From the NCBI GenBank assembly GCA_963749405.1, contig CAVVMY010000016.1, forward strand, positions 16,414-80,413: a DNA stretch of 64,000 nt. The letters run 5' to 3'. Under the pieces are notes generated by a model. It saw nothing but the letters and a program-made list of their open reading frames with translations. It searched no databases and was not told where the DNA came from. Source of the stretch: Candidatus Altiarchaeales archaeon. GTDB lineage: Archaea > Altiarchaeota > Altiarchaeia > IMC4 > QMZM01. The position numbers and the translations under genes are program-made. Positions 7,463 through 19,656 of the stretch are shown here, piece after piece (the first letter of the stretch is position 1; each line of letters starts with the position of its first letter).

Positions 7463-8896
7463 TGGAAAAAGCACTGATAGCATCGATAGCCCTGACGCTT
7501 TTATTATGCTGCTGCACTAACGTAACCAAAAGCACAAACACGTCCGCGACTATACAAATAGATACAAACCAGAACGCATCCTACAGCTCAAGAGACGACC
7601 CAATCGCCAGATGCGAGAAAAGCCTAGAAAAAGACCTATGCTTTTGGAACGCAGGAAAAAAGGCGAATGATACCTCTTTTTGCGACAGGATAACAACGCA
7701 GACAGACAAAGACAGACTGCTTTCTCGGACTAGCAGAAGGAGTAAACCAGCCGGAAATCTGCGAAAAAATATCCGACCCGCAAGTAAAGGATACCTGTTA
7801 TTCCAACTATGCCATCGATCTAAATGATTACTCAGTCTGCAAGAATATCTCAGACCTCACTAACAAGGAGACCTGTTATTACTACATCAGTTTACAACAG
7901 AAGGACATCAGTATCTGCGACCAGATAGAGAGGAAAGACACAAGAGACGCATGTTACATGAGCCAAGTGGAATACAGGAAAGATCCATCCATCTGCGCAG
8001 GCATCGCAAACACAAATACGACAGACCTATGCTACTACAATCTTGCAAAGGCGGTTACAAATGAGACATACTGTTCCAGGATCAATGACAGCTCCCTGAG
8101 GAACCTATGCAGATACGACGTCGCAGTATCCAAAAAGGACATGAAGGTCTGCATAGGCATAGAGTACACGGACCTGCGAGTCCACTGTGATGCAGTAACA
8201 GGACTAGAGCCAAGCGCCTGCGACGGCATAGAGAATCAGGATGAAAAAGATTACTGCTACAGCGACGTTGCGAACCTGACATACGACCCATACGTATGCG
8301 AAAAGATAAACGATAATGCGACAAGGGAATACTGCTTCAAAGACCTTGCAAAAACCCTGAAAGACGAGTCCATCTGCATGGCACTAAACGACTACAAGAG
8401 TAGCTGCTTCTACGACGTGGCCACAAACGAAAAAAATGCGGACATATGCAAAGAAATAACTGCGGAAGACTACAAAACAGAATGCTACAGAAAAGCCAGC
8501 ACAGAGAAAACAGACCCCAGCATCTGCGATGAACTGGAAGAACAGACAAACAAGGATGCCTGCTACCTGGACATGGCCAACAAAAAAAGAGACGCATCGA
8601 TCTGCGAGAAGATCCAAGACACAGACCAAAAAGCATACTGCATCGCACAAGCAAAAAACGACTCCACACTCTGCAAAAACATAAACGACCTAGATCTCCA
8701 GGACCAATGCGCAGGGATCATAGACAAAGACCCGGCCAAATGCGACAGAATAGGCTCGGCAACATACAAAGCGATCAACCTAAAAGACGACTGCTACACG
8801 CAGATAATAGAAGAGATAAACGATACGGCGATCTGCGGGACGAAAGAGTTTTCGGAATATAAGAACAGGTGCATTGCGATAATGGAGGGGTCGTAA
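7462..8896 (+). CDS. secreted/lipoprotein-like Cys-rich tandem-repeat protein (about 16 repeats of a roughly 30 aa C-x-DxCY motif), with +1 frameshift near 7703-7712
   Basis: N-terminal signal/lipobox-like sequence (LTLLLCCCTN). Repeated ...ICxxI..D..KDxCY...A... units continue from ORF 7462-7827 into ORF 7958-8896 through a frame change at gacaaagacAgactgc. Removing one A gives TDKDDCFLGLAEGVNQPEICEKI. Confidence 0.55.
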
Positions 8897-9031
8897 GTAG
8901 CAAACAAAAAAGTGAGCATAACATACCCCATGACATGTTTCATGCGAAGAAAGTTCGCATAAAATCTAGTTTTTCCAAATGAAATGAGCTTATATATCCG
9001 TTGCCATATATAATTTGTAACATGAAATAAC

Positions 9032-9232
9032 ATGGATATAAACGAAAGGAAATATAGTAACGATATTCTGGAACTAATAGAAAAGAAAGGGTCATTACAT
9101 AGAGACGACCTTTATAAAAGCTTGATTATAAAATACAATATCGCAAAGAAAAACCAAAAAAAATTCAAAAATAATGTATACTCAAACTATTTGAGTAAAC
9201 TGATTAGTAACAAACTTATTGCTAAAACATGA
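9032..9232 (+). CDS. small hypothetical protein in AT-rich islet
   Basis: 66 aa ORF in a roughly 30% GC segment directly upstream of a GIY-YIG ORF. No recognisable domain. Confidence 0.3.
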   Translation: MDINERKYSNDILELIEKKGSLHRDDLYKSLIIKYNIAKKNQKKFKNNVYSNYLSKLISNKLIAKT

Positions 9233-9247
9233 AAAAACATTTACAGT

Positions 9248-9640
9248 GTGTCGCTTGAATCAAAATCCTCAAGCTTCGTAAATCAATTTGCAGAAAGAAT
9301 TCCAATTGAAAAACTAAAGACGTTGATTATCCTATCAAAGAGATTTCGAAAGAAAACTGGCTTCTATTTTTTGTATGATGGAAATACCCTGTATTACGTC
9401 GGTATAGGCAACATTATCCAAAGATTGAAAAGCCATGCCTATGTAGATAAGCATAAAGGAAAATGGAATTATTTTAGTTTTTATATTACAGAAAATATAG
9501 ACCACGCAAAAGAAATTGAGGCGATTATTCAAAGAAGTACGCAATTAGAAGGAAATATAAAGACTGGAAAACTGAGGAACTCCAAAGACCTTACAGAGTC
9601 CATAAACACATTTGACTCGATTTTAGAAGACTTTAAATAA
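9248..9640 (+). CDS. GIY-YIG nuclease domain protein
   Basis: 130 aa with FYFLYDGNTLYYVGIGNIIQRLKSH matching the GIY...YIG...R core and a downstream conserved E (KEIEAII). AT-rich context. Confidence 0.5.
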   Translation: MSLESKSSSFVNQFAERIPIEKLKTLIILSKRFRKKTGFYFLYDGNTLYYVGIGNIIQRLKSHAYVDKHKGKWNYFSFYITENIDHAKEIEAIIQRSTQLEGNIKTGKLRNSKDLTESINTFDSILEDFK

Positions 9641-9677
9641 ATTAACCGATAATAATATGAAAGAAAAGTAGAAGCTT

Positions 9678-10370
9678 TTATCTTCTCGGTTTTCCTCTTC
9701 TTTTCATCCTCTTGAGTCTTTGTCTTTCGGCCATTTCCAGCAGGTATGGCTGGGGTTCTGCTTGGGATATGAATTCGTCTAGTGGTGCTGTGAATTCTTT
9801 TCCTTGGGCTTTTAGGACTTCTCTTGCGAGGATCCAGTATATGAGGGCTATGCTGTTTTTTCCTTTGTTGTTTGATGGTATGACTATGTCTATGTTTTTT
9901 AGTCTTGTGTTTGTGTCGCATATTGCGAGGATTGGTATGCCCATGATGGCTGCTTCTTTGATTGCTTGTTGGTCTGCGTTTGGGTCTGTTACTACTAGTA
10001 GTTTTGGTTCTGTGTATGTTTCGATGTTTGGGTTTGTCAGGGTTCCTGATACGAATCTGTCTGTGAATGCTTTTGCGCCTGTGTATTCTGCGTATTTTCT
10101 TATGGATTTTCTTCCGTAGACTCTGTTTGATACTAGGAGTATTTCTTTTGGGTCGTATCTTGATAGGAAGGCTGCTGCTACTTTTATTCTGTCGTTTATC
10201 TTTTTTACGTCGAAGACGCATAGTTTGTCTGGTCTTATTTTGTAGATGAATGGTCTCATGTCGCTTGTCCGGTATTTCAGGCCTACGTGTATCCCGTTTG
10301 ATAGGTAGTCGTCTAGTGGTACCAGTAGGTCTTCTTCTGCTTCGACCATCATGTCTTGTTCGTCAGCCAT
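9678..10370 (-). CDS. rps2: 30S ribosomal protein S2 (uS2)
   Basis: 230 aa with an archaeal uS2 pattern (LLVVTDPNADQQAIKEAAIMGIPILAICDTN). Confidence 0.9.
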   Translation of the reverse strand: MADEQDMMVEAEEDLLVPLDDYLSNGIHVGLKYRTSDMRPFIYKIRPDKLCVFDVKKINDRIKVAAAFLSRYDPKEILLVSNRVYGRKSIRKYAEYTGAKAFTDRFVSGTLTNPNIETYTEPKLLVVTDPNADQQAIKEAAIMGIPILAICDTNTRLKNIDIVIPSNNKGKNSIALIYWILAREVLKAQGKEFTAPLDEFISQAEPQPYLLEMAERQRLKRMKRRGKPRR

Positions 10371-10372
10371 TT

Positions 10373-10690
10373 TTACTCGGTTTCTTCAACTATTACTTCT
10401 TCTTCGAATTCTTCTTCAGGCGCTTCTTTGGTTTCCTTTGGTTCTTCCTCTATTTCGCCTTCGTCTATGGGTATGTCCGGGATTATCTTGGATTCTTTTC
10501 GGATTCTTTTCTCCTCTCTTACCCGGACTGTGATTGGCAGGATGCCTTGTTTTAGTTCTAGTCTTGCTATTTCCAGTGGTTTTTCCATTGTCTTTGGGAC
10601 TTTGACCAGTATGGGTGCGCCCATCTTTATCTGGAGGGCTCTTGCGCCTACCAGTCTTGCTACTTCGAATTTTGTGTAACTTTGAGTCAT
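10373..10690 (-). CDS. rpoK: DNA-directed RNA polymerase subunit K (Rpo6)
   Basis: 105 aa with FEVARLVGARALQI and an acidic C-terminal tail. Confidence 0.85.
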   Translation of the reverse strand: MTQSYTKFEVARLVGARALQIKMGAPILVKVPKTMEKPLEIARLELKQGILPITVRVREEKRIRKESKIIPDIPIDEGEIEEEPKETKEAPEEEFEEEVIVEETE

Positions 10691-15178: not shown

Positions 15179-15241
15179 GCTTGCGCTGGCATCCTTGCGG
15201 ACTTTGGGGGTGAAGACATCCCTTCTTTGAGAAGGGAGGCT

Positions 15242-15329
15242 CGCCGAGGATGAGATTCGAACTCATGACCCCCTCGCGGAGAACGGGCTCTCAAGGCCCG
15301 CGCGTTAAACCGTGCTCTGCCACCTCGGC
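15242..15329 (-). tRNA. tRNA-Ser(TGA), class II with long variable arm
   Basis: 88 nt. Perfect acceptor stem GCCGAGG/CCTCGGC plus discriminator G. Anticodon arm is CGGGC-CTTGAGA-GCCCG (anticodon TGA). T-arm is ATGAG-TTCGAAT-CTCAT. A long variable arm is present. Confidence 0.8.
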
Positions 15330-15470
15330 ACCTGTAATGAACGTGAGTGCCGAGATGCCGACATTCGTCGTCACCTCGGCGTTGTGAATGAACATGAACA
15401 ACGCTGAGACGCCCGACCCGTAGGTCGGCTGCGCCTCGGCGTTGTGAATGAGGAGTGCGTTATATTCGCG
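15320..15470. repeat. three tandem imperfect copies (period about 50-57 bp) of the tRNA-Ser 5' end plus its upstream sequence
   Basis: C(A/G)CCTCGGC(A/G)(C/T)(C/T)GT(A/G)AATGA(A/G) recurs at about 15320, 15371 and 15428. Only the first copy is attached to the complete tRNA. A CGACCCGTAGGTCGG hairpin lies between copies 2 and 3. Confidence 0.5.
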
Positions 15471-16117
15471 TCTTCCGAATATTTTTTTGTATGATTGTTC
15501 CTGTTTTGGGTTTGGGTGATGTGTGTAATTGTTATATCGTTTATGGCAAAAAATGCGTGGTTATAGATGCGGGTAATCCGCGTCTTGTTTTTGAGAAGCT
15601 TCGGGAGTTAGATATTGGTATCGATTATTTATTAACTACCCATTATCACCATGATCATGTTTCCGGGCTTCCTTTTTTGAAGGATAATCTGGGCGGCGTC
15701 GTAGCTGTGCATGAGGCTGATGCTTCTGCTTTGGAGGAGGGCGATACCAGCCAGGTACTGTCTTATCTTTTTGACCAGAAATGCCCTAAAGTCGCAGTTG
15801 ATTGGAAGCTTAAGGAGGGGGACTTGGTCGATCTGGGTGGTTTGGTTTTGGAGGTCATCCATACTCCGGGGCATACGCCTGGCGGGATCTGCCTTTATGA
15901 GCCGGCTTCTAAGTCTCTTTTTTCGGGGGATACTGTGTTTGCTGATGGCGTTGGCAGGACTGATTTTGCCGGCGGGAGTTTCCCTGATTTGAAAAAGTCA
16001 GTTGAGAAGCTCATTAGGCTGCATAGGGAGCGGGGTGTGGGGACTGTTTATCCGGGACATGGGCCTCTTTTCGGGGGTGATGATCTGGAAGGGATTTATG
16101 AGGCGTCTTTTGGATAG
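15455..16117 (+). CDS. MBL-fold metallo-hydrolase (beta-lactamase/glyoxalase II-like)
   Basis: THYHHDH (HxHxDH) motif with downstream His/Asp ligands. The true start is probably the internal Met near 15491. Confidence 0.8.
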   Translation: MRYIRVFRIFFCMIVPVLGLGDVCNCYIVYGKKCVVIDAGNPRLVFEKLRELDIGIDYLLTTHYHHDHVSGLPFLKDNLGGVVAVHEADASALEEGDTSQVLSYLFDQKCPKVAVDWKLKEGDLVDLGGLVLEVIHTPGHTPGGICLYEPASKSLFSGDTVFADGVGRTDFAGGSFPDLKKSVEKLIRLHRERGVGTVYPGHGPLFGGDDLEGIYEASFG

Positions 16118-16122
16118 TTAAA

Positions 16123-16680
16123 ATGGACAAAATCTTTACATTAAAGGAGATACTTACAATAACTGGAACTATTACGGGTATATTTACAGCAATTTTTACA
16201 GGGGTATATGCATTAATTGTTGCTTCTGAGTATGCTAAAAAACCTCGGCCATCTCTTGAAGGTTTTGTTAAAAAGACGTTTAAAGGACAAACAAGCTACT
16301 TCCTCAAAGTTTCTGTGAGCGGATACAGATTCCTTTTTATAAAGTTCAAAGCAGACAAGGATGCCAAGGATTGTAGGGGGATGCTGAAATGTTCTAACGT
16401 CCTGCCAAACACTTTAAATCTCAATTGGAATGGCACCCATGGAAAAACCACGGTGAGTATAGAACCTGATGAATACGAATTAGTTGGTCTTTTCTATAGA
16501 GATAAGAATGCAAACGAAGTCTCCCCTTTTGCTGACAGTATTGGGGAGTTACCCCCTGCAAAACTAGCGCTTGAAGGCGGGATAACAATTAGTGTGAAAT
16601 CGACAAATGCAGGCACAGTAACTATTAGAAGAAAAATCAGCGACATAATAAAGGAATCAGTTGAGGTGAAAGATGCCTAA
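16123..16680 (+). CDS. hypothetical membrane-anchored protein (AT-rich islet gene 1 of 3)
   Basis: 185 aa with an N-terminal TM helix (ILTITGTITGIFTAIFTGVYALIV) then a beta-rich domain. The islet is about 38% GC against about 50% in flanking DNA. Confidence 0.4.
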   Translation: MDKIFTLKEILTITGTITGIFTAIFTGVYALIVASEYAKKPRPSLEGFVKKTFKGQTSYFLKVSVSGYRFLFIKFKADKDAKDCRGMLKCSNVLPNTLNLNWNGTHGKTTVSIEPDEYELVGLFYRDKNANEVSPFADSIGELPPAKLALEGGITISVKSTNAGTVTIRRKISDIIKESVEVKDA

Positions 16681-17422
16681 ATGCCCCGTCTGTAATAAAG
16701 AAGCCCCTTGCCACTGTACCCAATGTGGGCGAGAATTTTGCAAAGGCCATAGTAGGATACACGAGTGTAGCGACACATCTCAAAAAGGAGATGTGGATTT
16801 TATCCGGCATTTAACGGCAGAGATAAAAACACGAGATATTGTTTTTGAATATTTTGAGTTAGCAAATAAGTCGCAAAGATATGGAATGGATTATTTGAAC
16901 GAGGTAGATGCTAAAGTTGAGGCGCTTCTTCAGAAAGTCAAGGATAAGCAAAATATCCCTTTTAAAATTAGATACGTTGATAATGATCCGGCATATCCTG
17001 AGAACATAGCAATTGTAAGAGATTACGAGTTACAGAGCGAAGCATATGGTGAATTGCGAGAGCATGCGCAATATCTTCTTCGTTTAGATAAAGATGTCTA
17101 TCGAAATTTTTGTGCAAACAACAAAGTTAGCATAGAGGGGTCATTAATTGTTAAAATAGAGGGTAAAATCGTATGGTATGAGCTTAGAGGCCATATGGAC
17201 TGGGGAGTTCCATGGTTTTTGTATAAAGTTCTCTTTTTTGGGAAAGATGCTATAGAGGCGTTAATTAAGATTTCATTTTATAAAAAATCACAGGAACTAA
17301 GGAATCTGAAAGAACACAGTGCAAGCATTAGGGGGATAATGCTAAGTGATAAATCATGCCACGACCAAAAATTTAGAGGAGAAACAGAATTGCTGAAAGA
17401 TTCATGGCATCGCAAATACTAG
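16673..17422 (+). CDS. hypothetical protein with N-terminal treble-clef zinc finger (zf-HIT/MYND-like) (islet gene 2 of 3)
   Basis: 249 aa with CPVCNKEAPCHCTQCGREFCKGHSRIHEC at the N-terminus. Overlaps gene 1 by 8 nt and gene 3 by 19 nt, consistent with a single operon. Confidence 0.4.
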   Translation: MPKCPVCNKEAPCHCTQCGREFCKGHSRIHECSDTSQKGDVDFIRHLTAEIKTRDIVFEYFELANKSQRYGMDYLNEVDAKVEALLQKVKDKQNIPFKIRYVDNDPAYPENIAIVRDYELQSEAYGELREHAQYLLRLDKDVYRNFCANNKVSIEGSLIVKIEGKIVWYELRGHMDWGVPWFLYKVLFFGKDAIEALIKISFYKKSQELRNLKEHSASIRGIMLSDKSCHDQKFRGETELLKDSWHRKY

Positions 17423-17793
17423 TGGATGGACTACCCAAAACAGAGGTTGAGGTTGGTAAAAACTTCGTAAGCGGGGCATTAAGCATTCATAGAACGGCTA
17501 AATATGTCAGCGAAATGAATCAATATAAGCGGAGTATGCTGAAAAAAATAGATTTGCTATATGAAAAAGGGGATGAGATTTGGATAATAGAGGCAAAAAA
17601 CAGCCTCATTGACAAAAATAATTACAAAGCATATACTGCGATAGGTCAAGTCCTTTCATATGAAAAACTCTATAAGGAGGATAATCCGGCAAATACTAAG
17701 AAGATAAGACTAGGAATTGTTTGTGGAATAGGAATAGACCCCTTCATAGAAACCTGTTGTAATTCCCTTGGAATCATGGTTTTTAAATTTTAG
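17404..17793 (+). CDS. small PD-(D/E)xK-like (restriction endonuclease fold) protein (islet gene 3 of 3)
   Basis: 129 aa. KGDEIWIIEAKNS fits the D...(D/E)xK motif (GDE ... IEAK) in a beta-strand context similar to Hjc/NucS-like nucleases. Confidence 0.35.
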   Translation: MASQILVDGLPKTEVEVGKNFVSGALSIHRTAKYVSEMNQYKRSMLKKIDLLYEKGDEIWIIEAKNSLIDKNNYKAYTAIGQVLSYEKLYKEDNPANTKKIRLGIVCGIGIDPFIETCCNSLGIMVFKF

Positions 17794-17931
17794 CCCAAAA
17801 GTGTATAGTTATTAAGTGATAACAAGTCGTTTAATGCGTTCTGTGGTGTCAACGACATCACAAATCTCGTTTCGGGGAATCAGGAGTTACAAAGAACTGA
17901 AGGGGCGGTAGCCCCTGCGGTTCGGTGTGTT

Positions 17932-19656
17932 ATGAGAATTGCTGTTATTGACAGGGAGCGTTGCAAGGTCAGGATTTGTGGCCTGCAGTGCAAGAAATGC
18001 TGCCCGATGGTGAAGACCGGGAAGGAAACGGTTATCGTGGATGAGGAGAGCGGCAAGCCTATAATCGTCGAGGATATGTGTTCCGGCTGCGGCATCTGCG
18101 TTAAGAAGTGCCCTTTTGACGCTATCCAGATAATCAACATCGTCGAGGAGGTTGGCGAGCCGATCCACCAGTATGGCGTCAACGGATTCCGTTTGTATAA
18201 TCTGCCTACCCCTAAAGAAGGGGTTGTCGGAATTGTTGGAGCGAATGGCATCGGTAAGACTACCATGATGAAAATCCTCTCAGGGGAATTGAAACCGAAC
18301 CTGGGCAAGGAGGGTGCTGATTGGGTGGAAGTTGTGGACAGGTTCCGGGGCAAGGAGATCCAGAATTATCTTGAGAAGCTTTCCCGTAAGGAGTTGAAGG
18401 CTGTTTATAAGCCTCAGCATGTGGATAAGATCCCTGTTCACGTGAAGGGTAATGTTCACAGCATATTGGAGAAGTCGGATACCAGCGGGCGCATGAAGGA
18501 TATCGTGGAAAAACTGGATTTAAAGAATGCACTTGATGCGAACATGAAAGAACTTTCCGGCGGAGAGTTGCAGCGTGTGGCCTTGGCCGCCTGCCTGGCA
18601 AGGGAAGCCGACGTGTACTTGATCGACGAGCCTTCCAGTTATTTGGACGTACGGGAGCGTATCAACATGGCAAGGGTCATACGCGAGATAAGCGAAGTTA
18701 CGAAGAAGTATGTCTTTGTCATAGAGCACGACCTTATAGTCTTGGATTATCTGTCTGATTACATACACGTCATATATGGCGCCCCCGGGGCATATGGTGT
18801 GATATCCAACATTAAGAGCACGCGCGTAGGCATAAACGAGTATCTTTCCGGTTATCTGAAGTCCGAGAACGTGCGTTTCAGGGAGGAGATACGCTTTGAC
18901 GTGCGGCCTCCAAAGGACCGAAAAGAAATCAAAGAGAAAATAGAGTATCCGGAATTAAAGAAGCACTATGAGCGCTTCAAACTGGACGTGGACGGCGGCA
19001 CAATAGAAGGCCCCGCGATACTGGGAATACTTGGAAAGAACGCGATCGGCAAGACCACATTCGTCAAGATGCTTGCAGGAGTGATCGAACCGGATAATGC
19101 GAAACTGGACCTGAACCTGAAGGTCTCATATAAGCCGCAGTACATCGAAGCGCAGGACGCGCTGGTCGTATCATTGCACCCGGACTCTGAACTCGTGGAA
19201 AGGTTCCGAATACGCCACCTCATGGACAGGAACATAAGCGATCTATCAGGCGGGGAACTGCAGAAAGTAGCCATCGTCGACTGCCTCAGCAAAGACGCAG
19301 ACCTCTATCTATTGGACGAACCATCTGCGTACCTTGACGTGGAGGAGCGGCTGAAACTCTCGAAGCATCTGAAAAAATACATCGAAGACCACAGGAAAAG
19401 CATACTCGTAGTAGACCACGACATAATGCTCATAGATTATTTGTCCGATCAGCTCATGGTCTTCTCCGGAGAAGGAGGAAAAAGCGGACATGCGACTGCG
19501 CCGATGGATCTGCGAAGCGGGATGAACACGTTTTTGAAGGATATGAACACGACCTTCCGCCGCGACGCCGAGACAAAGAGACCGAGGATAAACAAGCCGG
19601 ATTCGGTGAAGGATAGAGAGCAGAGGGAGAGAGGGGAGTATTATTATGTGGAGTGA
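17932..19656 (+). CDS. abcE1: ribosome recycling/translation initiation ATPase ABCE1 (RNase L inhibitor homolog)
   Basis: 574 aa with N-terminal 2x[4Fe-4S] Cys clusters (CGLQCKKCCP ... CSGCGICVKKCP) and two ABC ATPase domains (GANGIGKTT, GKNAIGKTT, LSGGELQ). Confidence 0.9.
   Translation: MRIAVIDRERCKVRICGLQCKKCCPMVKTGKETVIVDEESGKPIIVEDMCSGCGICVKKCPFDAIQIINIVEEVGEPIHQYGVNGFRLYNLPTPKEGVVGIVGANGIGKTTMMKILSGELKPNLGKEGADWVEVVDRFRGKEIQNYLEKLSRKELKAVYKPQHVDKIPVHVKGNVHSILEKSDTSGRMKDIVEKLDLKNALDANMKELSGGELQRVALAACLAREADVYLIDEPSSYLDVRERINMARVIREISEVTKKYVFVIEHDLIVLDYLSDYIHVIYGAPGAYGVISNIKSTRVGINEYLSGYLKSENVRFREEIRFDVRPPKDRKEIKEKIEYPELKKHYERFKLDVDGGTIEGPAILGILGKNAIGKTTFVKMLAGVIEPDNAKLDLNLKVSYKPQYIEAQDALVVSLHPDSELVERFRIRHLMDRNISDLSGGELQKVAIVDCLSKDADLYLLDEPSAYLDVEERLKLSKHLKKYIEDHRKSILVVDHDIMLIDYLSDQLMVFSGEGGKSGHATAPMDLRSGMNTFLKDMNTTFRRDAETKRPRINKPDSVKDREQRERGEYYYVE

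Follow-up and report, generated by a model that had tools for sequence, protein, structure and literature searches.

A low-GC insert beside ABCE1 in a Candidatus Altiarchaeales genome encodes an orphan membrane protein and a frameshifted, predicted NucS-like nuclease

Introduction

The closest known fold to the nuclease domain described here is the catalytic domain of NucS/EndoMS, the mismatch endonuclease of archaea and actinobacteria (PDB 2VLD). The two share 14% identity, and neither Pfam nor NCBIfam gives a NucS profile match for the proteins of our window or for 53 members of the nuclease family. NucS/EndoMS carries an N-terminal half-barrel domain for DNA binding and dimerisation, whereas our protein has a zinc finger and a thioredoxin fold in front of its nuclease domain, and is the product of a horizontally acquired and apparently accessory gene. 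AF1548 of Archaeoglobus, an uncharacterised restriction-endonuclease-like protein (PDB 1Y88), has other accessory domains again and no detectable sequence kinship.

Several defence systems join a sensor to a PD-(D/E)xK effector, among them the CARF nucleases Can2, Card1 and Cdn1, SduA of Shedu, HamA of Hachiman, and McrC. In contrast to these, our protein carries neither CARF nor DUF4263, nor any other domain that defines them, and lacks a helicase or ATPase partner. Far fewer defence and accessory nuclease systems are recognised in archaea than in bacteria, and the Altiarchaeales population is under heavy virus pressure. Against PADLOC-DB 2.0, the first two reading frames of the locus (ORF1 and ORF2) gave no matches and the third (ORF3) only HEC-02B at E 5e-3, while family members gave sub-threshold cross-hits to Cas4_II (best 1.9e-4) and HEC-02A/B (about 1e-3 to 1e-4).

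The middle domain of our protein has the fold of the redox-active thioredoxin family without the CxxC that follows beta1 there, and shows no sequence-level match to non-redox thioredoxin-fold domains such as the KaiB-like N-domain of SasA. Precomputed Pfam annotation places DUF8045 (PF26193) on three family members (unmarked on P0033 and P0051, weak on P0009), and thus part of the nuclease family already has an entry among the domains of unknown function; five of the six closest homologues carry no such record. Literature searches on DUF8045/PF26193, on Altiarchaeota defence and on NucS with thioredoxin-like domains returned nothing on the nuclease family.

Results

A lineage-specific insert between the MBL-hydrolase and ABCE1 genes

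The window is a stretch of 64,000 nt from a Candidatus Altiarchaeales archaeon. Within it, the three reading frames span 1671 bp at 37.4% GC, compared with 46.9% for the window, 47.2% for the MBL-fold hydrolase gene on one flank and 50.1% for ABCE1 on the other; only 1% of 1671-bp windows have a GC content as low. In four related Altiarchaeales contigs (L002, L003, L009 and L011) the MBL gene directly adjoins ABCE1 at a distance of 60–64 nt, and the insert takes the place of a spacer that in relatives measures 57–64 nt. We therefore regard the 1.8-kb segment as a lineage-specific insertion. Homologues of the nuclease elsewhere mostly have a GC content near that of their own host, while the islet copy deviates from its host.

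16118..17931, no strand assigned: low-GC, lineage-specific insert, from the MBL-hydrolase stop codon to the ABCE1 start codon
17842..17862, + strand: possible terminator, a hairpin TGTGGTGTCAACGACATCACA then a T-rich tail, from a consensus scan only; it lies 3' of the nuclease-gene stop codon, inside the insert

Our conclusion is that the islet is genuine: a Candidatus Altiarchaeales genome has recently acquired an insert of ~1.8 kb, which holds two genes and not three. The original prediction of an AT-rich, horizontally acquired islet between an MBL hydrolase and ABCE1 is thus confirmed in composition and location and supported in origin.

The spacers at the MBL–ABCE1 site proved not alignable, and the spacer between ORF3 and ABCE1 retains no residual homology. 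No direct or inverted repeats marking a mobile-element boundary were found around the insert, and no Rfam families were detected besides tRNAs. A tRNA-Ser gene was considered as the integration site and rejected, given that relatives keep both the tRNA and the MBL gene in position and that the insert lies 3' of the latter.

One explanation for such an insertion is a free-standing selfish gene resembling a homing endonuclease, in which the zinc finger recognises the site and the PD-(D/E)xK domain cuts the empty MBL–ABCE1 spacer. The insertion sits precisely inside the short spacer that separates two conserved genes, and relatives lack it; there is no integrase, terminal repeat or target duplication, and a frameshift in the nuclease gene (see below) would be compatible with a homing cycle in its decay phase. 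Other family members also stand singly beside housekeeping genes, namely that for ribosomal protein L3 in L099 and, in L089, a gene whose product has a putatively HypF-like C-terminus. However, most homologues elsewhere have a GC content like that of their host, the family does not conserve the zinc finger, no second pair of this site, occupied or empty, came to light beyond the lineage, and ORF1 is left unexplained, so that we consider this explanation decidedly doubtful.

ORF2 and ORF3 form one frameshifted gene

All three + strand reading frames of the original prediction are present, with the overlaps of 8 nt and 19 nt that it reported. Its reading of them as three translationally coupled genes fails at the second overlap, which results from a 1-nt deletion within a single gene.

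16673-17422, + strand: ORF2, 249 aa
17404-17793, + strand: ORF3, 129 aa
16673..17793, + strand: single gene (ORF2 plus ORF3) for a 373-aa zinc-finger/thioredoxin-fold/PD-(D/E)xK nuclease, with a 1-nt deletion in the assembly
17401..17402, + strand: frameshift site, from a blastn alignment, with GAT-TCATGG in the assembly and GATCTCATGG in L001

The evidence comes from Logan contig L001, which derives from another read set (ERR11596056) and is 99.94% identical over 3156 nt. L001 has one additional C between positions 17401 and 17402, and this restores an intact 373-aa protein (P0003). The absent C deletes the codon of L244, a residue that is invariant in a seven-sequence alignment (A1) and that lies in the conserved ExELLxKLxxSG helix, the first helix of the nuclease domain. 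Six homologues of 295–337 aa align across the ORF2/ORF3 junction, four of them as one phmmer stretch, and at least 12 of the 53 family representatives match the HMMs of both the middle and the nuclease domain, with two more placed by alignment. Judged from these comparisons, ORF2 and ORF3 are one gene, of which ORF3 is the truncated C-terminal part. Programmed −1 frameshifting was rejected, since there is no slippery heptamer in 17376-17422 and the sister contig has the extra base. The frameshift may reflect a genuine mutation, variation within the population or a mistake in assembly; the gene copy in the assembly is accordingly either inactivated or mis-assembled.

The alternative is that three separate, translationally coupled proteins make up a conserved three-component system for defence, toxin–antitoxin function or DNA processing. 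Three overlapping reading frames do exist in the assembly, and the first two share 8 nt, ORF2 being preceded by a Shine-Dalgarno-like site. Against this, ORF2 and ORF3 are joined in L001 and colinear with single-chain homologues; ORF3 lacks the first helix and the conserved Glu of stand-alone homologues, which start upstream of its own start; and its ATG has no Shine-Dalgarno-like site within 10 nt. Nor does the proposed trio recur: ORF1 has no homologue anywhere, and the eight homologue loci have no neighbour in common. By the same two findings, the recurring small gene pair that defines type II toxin–antitoxin systems is missing here. We regard the three-component explanation as largely refuted and very improbable.

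ORF1 is an orphan membrane protein

16123-16680, + strand: ORF1, 185 aa, orphan membrane protein, starting 5 nt past the MBL stop codon
16663..16669, + strand: Shine-Dalgarno-like GAGGTGA, read from the sequence, 3 nt upstream of the ORF2 ATG and within the end of ORF1

In the composition of the islet, 185 codons without a stop would arise by chance with P about 4e-7. Hydropathy gives ORF1 one N-terminal transmembrane helix (approximately residues 10–35; 16150-16227), in keeping with the membrane anchor first assigned to it, and the helix is followed by a Lys/Arg-rich stretch and then a domain without a recognised family. By the positive-inside rule this C-terminal domain would be cytoplasmic. 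ORF1 forms a singleton cluster among 15 billion proteins, and has no match in Pfam, NCBIfam, PADLOC or PHROGs, nor by tblastn in plasmids, phages or any of the fetched loci. On this distribution, ORF1 does not accompany the nuclease as a conserved partner. The 8-nt overlap, ATGCCTAA, would nonetheless fit translational coupling of ORF1 and ORF2.

These observations bear on a second possibility, namely that the two genes were acquired as a pair and work together as a membrane-linked defence or abortive-infection module, with ORF1 tethering, sensing for or restraining the nuclease. Both genes were acquired in one low-GC segment and overlap on the same strand, the soluble domain of ORF1 is probably on the cytoplasmic side, as the nuclease is, and one nuclease homologue lies in a defence island. 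Yet ORF1 occurs only in this insert, homologues of the nuclease are found without any similar neighbour, and PADLOC matches neither gene. A working pair is, in our view, unlikely.

Domains of the 373-aa protein

AlphaFold2 gave no fold for the fused protein from its single sequence (pLDDT 32), and the model discussed here was built from a 41-sequence alignment.

16673..16768, + strand: N-terminal Cys/His cluster, a putative two-zinc cross-brace or treble-clef finger read from the sequence (residues 1–32)
16787..17242, + strand: thioredoxin-fold middle domain (residues ~39–190)
17243-17341, + strand: long linker helix after the middle domain (residues 191–223)
17381..17790, + strand: PD-(D/E)xK (NucS-like) nuclease domain (residues 237–373)
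17381-17383, + strand: candidate catalytic E237
17551-17553, + strand: candidate catalytic D294 (D50 of ORF3, in K-I-D-L-L)
17590-17592, + strand: candidate catalytic E307 (E63 of ORF3)
17596-17598, + strand: candidate catalytic K309 (K65 of ORF3)
17647-17649, + strand: candidate catalytic Q326 (Q82 of ORF3)

The Cys/His cluster comprises C4, C7, C13, C15, C18, C23, H26, H30 and C32. Its spacing, C-x2-C-x7-C-x2-C-x4-C-x2-H-x3-H-x-C, presumably resembles the two-zinc cross-brace of HIT and MYND fingers, as judged by eye. Of the zf-HIT-like finger originally predicted, the Cys/His-rich N-terminus stands; a zf-HIT profile match does not, as Pfam reports none even at E<=1, where its scan of ORF2 lists only zf-CRD at E 1.5e-3 (under the cut-off) and a sub-threshold TerY_C. 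The finger is modelled at low confidence (pLDDT 44–62) and is missing from the six closest homologues.

The model shows a thioredoxin fold in the middle domain, the conserved features of which are R45, an IP[YF]xI strand, an RNSSG-like loop and W168-Y-E. Neither the seven- nor the 15-sequence alignment contains a CxxC motif or a conserved Cys in this domain.

For the nuclease domain, the model has the alpha-beta-beta-beta-alpha-beta core of the PD-(D/E)xK superfamily, with the Asp on beta2, the (D/E)xK on beta3 and the Glu on alpha1. The candidate catalytic residues lie on strands 291–299 and 302–311 and helix 237–246. Among 53 sequences E307 never varies, and D294, K309 and Q326 each reach at least 90% conservation, as E237 does in the 15-sequence alignment. 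The GDE...IEAK active site that had been proposed for ORF3 therefore needs a small correction: IEAK (E63-A-K65) is retained, while the conserved acid is D50 of K-I-D-L-L rather than a residue of the GDE turn.

The likeness to NucS/EndoMS raises the question of whether this is a non-essential nuclease of DNA repair or recombination, a housekeeping-type paralogue whose distribution is patchy by chance. Despite the shared fold, sequence profiles of NucS and of repair families gave no match, the N-terminal domains are unlike the NucS DNA-binding domain, the gene is missing from the genome's close relatives and the family is rare. We think a repair function quite unlikely.

A rare nuclease family in varied contexts

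The nuclease family is rare, with 53 representatives at E<=1e-3 among 1.84 billion, in small clusters. Different modules are attached to its nuclease core, among them zinc ribbons, CDC48_N and the thioredoxin-like domain. Foldseek matched the model to a 146-aa protein from an uncultured archaeal virus (E 1.2e-6). One homologue, L005, adjoins a DRT4/DRT6 reverse transcriptase (2e-175) and PDC-S69, and this single case is a defence island. The Korarchaeota homologue P0033 lies between the genes for phosphoglucose isomerase and ribosomal protein L3 at native GC, and looks like a resident gene rather than part of an island.

Pfam, NCBIfam and PADLOC matched no family above threshold, giving weak cross-hits only, and so the earlier statement that the reading frames belong to no recognised family holds for these curated collections. 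Word-indexed homology searches with ORF2 and ORF3 alone returned nothing or the queries themselves, and a 15-sequence profile added almost nothing. Exact look-up of ORF3 and P0001 in the contig index gave no match; a three-sequence profile found no relatives in genome or viral contigs; a degenerate DNA pattern for E[IV]W[IL]IEAK gave seven chance matches and no homologue in viral contigs; and tblastn of the fused protein against plasmids and phages found no match. Searches of PDB sequences with the single sequence and two profiles gave nothing significant.

Discussion

The explanation that we favour, and think fairly probable, is that an acquired insert holds two genes, one for an orphan membrane protein and the other a single frameshifted gene for a multidomain nuclease, from an archaeal family not yet characterised, of accessory, restriction- or defence-like character. 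ORF1 would be held by one N-terminal membrane helix with its C-terminal domain in the cytoplasm. The fused 373-aa protein is a predicted metal-dependent DNA endonuclease, in which E237, D294, E307 and K309 would form a canonical active site on helix alpha1 and strands beta2–beta3, and the zinc finger and thioredoxin-fold domain may serve as a targeting or regulatory module.

The weakest step is the role. Rather than belonging to core repair, the nuclease may be accessory: restriction- or defence-like, or selfish in some other way. We infer this from the rarity of the family, its varied fusions, the defence island of L005, the viral match, and the VapBC and DUF4258/DUF2283 inserts that relatives have in the same chromosomal neighbourhood. 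The housekeeping context and native GC of P0033 argue against a defence-like role, as does the fact that the defence-island context is one case.

Going further, the family that combines zinc finger, thioredoxin fold and NucS-like domain could be an undescribed archaeal immune or selfish nuclease, perhaps acting with ORF1, in which the redox-inactive thioredoxin fold is a sensor that licenses DNA cleavage. We consider this possible but unlikely; were it so, the window would have caught a fresh acquisition, possibly one already being inactivated.

The locus is a clean, dated case in which an uncultivated subsurface lineage has gained a small nuclease module horizontally. The nuclease belongs to a rare family with a domain combination that we have not found described, a thioredoxin fold with a NucS-like PD-(D/E)xK domain and recurrent zinc-ribbon fusions. 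Should the family prove to be a defence or homing nuclease, this would be a new sensor–effector architecture. Even if it does not, what looks like an operon of three genes stems from a frameshift, as an artefact or a pseudogene, and this is relevant to the annotation of the present metagenome-assembled genome (MAG).

The AT-rich segment and its insertion

The evidence gives good support to the AT-rich segment between the MBL-fold hydrolase gene and ABCE1 being a recently and horizontally acquired insert of two genes, of which one encodes a multidomain PD-(D/E)xK nuclease of a rare, uncharacterised archaeal family. As originally predicted, three open reading frames are found here, and the overlaps of 8 nt (ORF1/ORF2) and 19 nt (ORF2/ORF3) were reproduced:

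16123–16680, +, ORF1, 185 aa
16673–17422, +, ORF2, 249 aa
17404–17793, +, ORF3, 129 aa

The segment's low GC content was likewise borne out, at 37.4% vs 46.9% (window), 47.2% (upstream MBL gene) and 50.1% (ABCE1); equally low GC occurs in only ∼1% of 1671-bp windows. GC3 is 34% in each ORF; the MBL gene has 44% and ABCE1 64%. At the base composition of the segment, 185 codons would stay open with a probability of about 4e-7, and thus we conclude that ORF1–ORF3 are not chance ORFs. None matches Pfam, NCBIfam, PADLOC or PHROGs above threshold, in keeping with the prediction that they belong to no recognised family; ORF3 gives only weak matches of PD-(D/E)xK type (RecB-like C-terminus, 1.4e-3; HEC-02B, 5e-3).

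In four related contigs (L002, L003, L009 and the more distant L011), whose ABCE1 is 71–94% identical to that of the window, ABCE1 follows the MBL gene after 60–64 nt, and the synteny S13, tRNA-Ser, MBL, ABCE1, Bax1-I, Trm5 is kept around the site. Therefore, an insert of about 1.8 kb (16118–17931), specific to this lineage, takes the place of the native spacer in the window, which upholds the proposed horizontal acquisition. The window's ABCE1 and that of 'Candidatus Altiarchaeales archaeon nzgw1' share 94% identity. The 138-nt spacer left in the window could not be aligned to that of the relatives, and no terminal repeats, target duplication or integrase were found at the insert. By eye, a putative TATA-like promoter element (ATATAAT) lies ∼24 nt upstream of the ABCE1 ATG in the relatives; it is gone from the window (17794–17931), so that ABCE1 transcription would there have to rely on insert-borne sequence or read-through. 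In this same region, a GGGGCGGTAGCCCC hairpin lies right before the ABCE1 ATG.

ORF2 and ORF3 as one frameshifted gene

An exact look-up places ORF2, ORF3 and P0003, an intact 373-aa protein, in one 90% cluster. P0003 derives from Logan contig L001 (ERR11596056), which is 99.94% identical to window positions 15218–18372, the differences being a single SNP, in ABCE1, and an extra C at 17401/17402 (GATCTCATGG vs GAT-TCATGG in the window). With the extra C, a single reading frame spans ORF2 and ORF3.

Run in full over 1.84 billion representatives, phmmer defines a nuclease family of 53 proteins at E≤1e-3. P0011, P0016, P0036 and P0039 (309–337 aa) each match by phmmer in a single aligned stretch over the junction, and P0009 and P0010 (295 and 304 aa) are colinear over it too in a seven-sequence alignment. 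A conserved helix, ExELLxKLxxSG, spans the junction, and the extra C regains L244, a residue that all seven aligned sequences share. A thioredoxin-fold middle domain followed by the nuclease is detected by HMM in at least 12 of the 53 representatives, with P0019 and P0020 added by alignment, while stand-alone nuclease homologues (115–148 aa) begin upstream of the ORF3 start and include the helix. Because of the colinear homologues, L244, the shared architecture and the earlier start of the stand-alone homologues, we conclude that the fused form came first, that ORF3 represents the nuclease domain of a single gene, clipped at its N-terminus, and that the 19-nt overlap, originally read as coupling, is a frameshift. 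Neither a slippery site at the junction nor a Shine-Dalgarno-like site close to the ORF3 ATG was found. The gene is broken in this assembly by a 1-nt deletion, either a real mutation or an assembly error. The ORF1/ORF2 overlap, ATGCCTAA, is genuine, with GAGGTGA 3 nt upstream.

The nuclease domain and N-terminus

AlphaFold2 modelled the fused protein from a 41-sequence alignment with a mean pLDDT of 77.7, most of residues 237–373 exceeding 90. The modelled nuclease domain comprises (fused-protein residues):

237–246, alpha1
254–261, beta1, then two helices
291–299, beta2
302–311, beta3
318–337, alpha
344–353, beta4, then alpha and beta5

As modelled, this order is that of a PD-(D/E)xK core, and Foldseek agrees (1y88, 6.8e-4; NucS, 1.5e-3). 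Among 53 sequences E307 is invariant, and D294, K309 and Q326 are each at least 90% conserved (D50, E63, K65 and Q82 in ORF3 numbering are D294, E307, K309 and Q326, respectively); E237 is at least 90% conserved in a 15-sequence set. Core topology, structural matches and conserved residues together confirm the predicted fold. Of the predicted 'GDE...IEAK' active site, IEAK stands, while the partner Asp is located in K-I-D-L-L rather than in the 'GDE' turn. Pfam gives family members weak matches only, to PDDEXK_9 (four members, best 2.3e-5), NERD, XisH and Cas4. The protein is a predicted metal-dependent DNA endonuclease, with E237, D294, E307 and K309 as candidate catalytic residues; a NucS-like repair paralogue is a rival reading.

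Residues 1–32 are poorly modelled. A zf-HIT-like finger had been proposed here, but no zinc-finger profile searched scored above threshold and zf-HIT was not reported at all; the region is nonetheless Cys/His-rich (nine residues). It is missing from close homologues, and other family members carry zinc ribbons at other places. The putative finger and the thioredoxin-fold domain may act as targeting or regulatory modules.

ORF1

ORF1 has one TM helix (about residues 10–35) followed by a Lys/Arg-rich segment, which by the positive-inside rule would make its C-terminal domain cytoplasmic. No library searched contains a homologue, the protein is a singleton cluster among 15 billion proteins, and it gives no tblastn match in plasmids, phages or 100 fetched loci; nor is any neighbour common to eight homologue loci of the nuclease. 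With ORF2 and ORF3 being one gene, ORF1 lacking homologues and no neighbour recurring, the conserved, coupled three-gene system at the centre of the original prediction falls. A rival is a two-component module of nuclease and ORF1: ORF1 is co-acquired and probably co-translated with the nuclease gene, but is not a conserved partner of it.

Downstream of a P0009-like homologue, L008 (2916–4220) has three consecutive small ORFs (124, 172 and 149 aa) whose N-terminal hydrophobic helices resemble archaeal type IV pilin-like proteins; none is related to ORF1 in sequence.

Family contexts and possible role

Homologues occur in DNA of 28–65% GC, their own GC being mostly host-like; only the window copy shows a clear AT shift vs its host. 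In L005 (1825–5940), from a low-GC (33%), presumably archaeal organism, P0010 adjoins a DRT4/DRT6 reverse transcriptase (PADLOC, 2e-175), with a PDC-S69 candidate (6.6e-16) and a pPIWI/Aga-associated-nuclease-like gene, a compact defence island. Elsewhere homologues adjoin a Cdc6-like ATPase and a Csa3-like HTH protein (L007) or lie directly 3' of a putative HypF-like gene end (L089; C-terminal peptide read by eye). Foldseek also matches the model to a 146-aa protein from an uncultured archaeal virus (E 1.2e-6).

Rarity, patchiness, variable fusions, the one defence-island neighbour, the viral relative and the variability of the host locus, which takes in toxin-antitoxin modules as well, hint at an accessory role, restriction- or defence-like or selfish. 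A rival is a free-standing homing-type endonuclease. Arguing against a purely mobile or defence nature of the family, the Korarchaeota homologue P0033 (L099, L100) has a phosphoglucose isomerase gene on one side and ribosomal protein L3 on the other.

Precomputed annotation labels P0033, P0051 (unmarked) and P0009 (weakly) as Pfam DUF8045, of which no literature mention was found; PADLOC and NCBIfam on all 53 members add nothing beyond sub-threshold PD-(D/E)xK cross-matches. The enzyme superfamily is known, the family partly catalogued as a DUF, and no description of the domain arrangement was found; we regard the novelty as moderate.

Neighbouring variation

In related Altiarchaeales the region acts as a hotspot of small accessory modules. 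Relatives carry other lineage-specific inserts in this neighbourhood (L002, 4227–6363; L003, 5102–6743 and 9732–10374), VapBC (PIN + VapB) lies 3' of ABCE1 in both, and L002 also has a DUF4258/DUF2283 pair after ABCE1. Between S13 and tRNA-Ser, upstream of the tRNA, L003 has an additional ∼1.9 kb containing two genes.

A second AT-rich islet (7958–9640) lies in a low-GC stretch (about 7900–10500) and holds the lowest-GC 1671-bp window of the whole sequence (36.4%, start 8851). Its two products have no Pfam match at E≤0.01:

7958–8896, 312-aa Cys-rich repeat protein
9248–9640, 130-aa ORF with a putative GIY-YIG-like 'LYYVGIG...RLKSH' motif read by eye

Nearer the insert lies a tRNA gene:

15241–15330, −, tRNA-Ser(TGA)

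Between it and the MBL gene start, a CCTCGGC...TGTGAATGA(A/G) motif occurs three times at 51–60 nt spacing (15321–15451); ∼60 nt here (15384–15454) are extra relative to L002 and look like a small tandem duplication.
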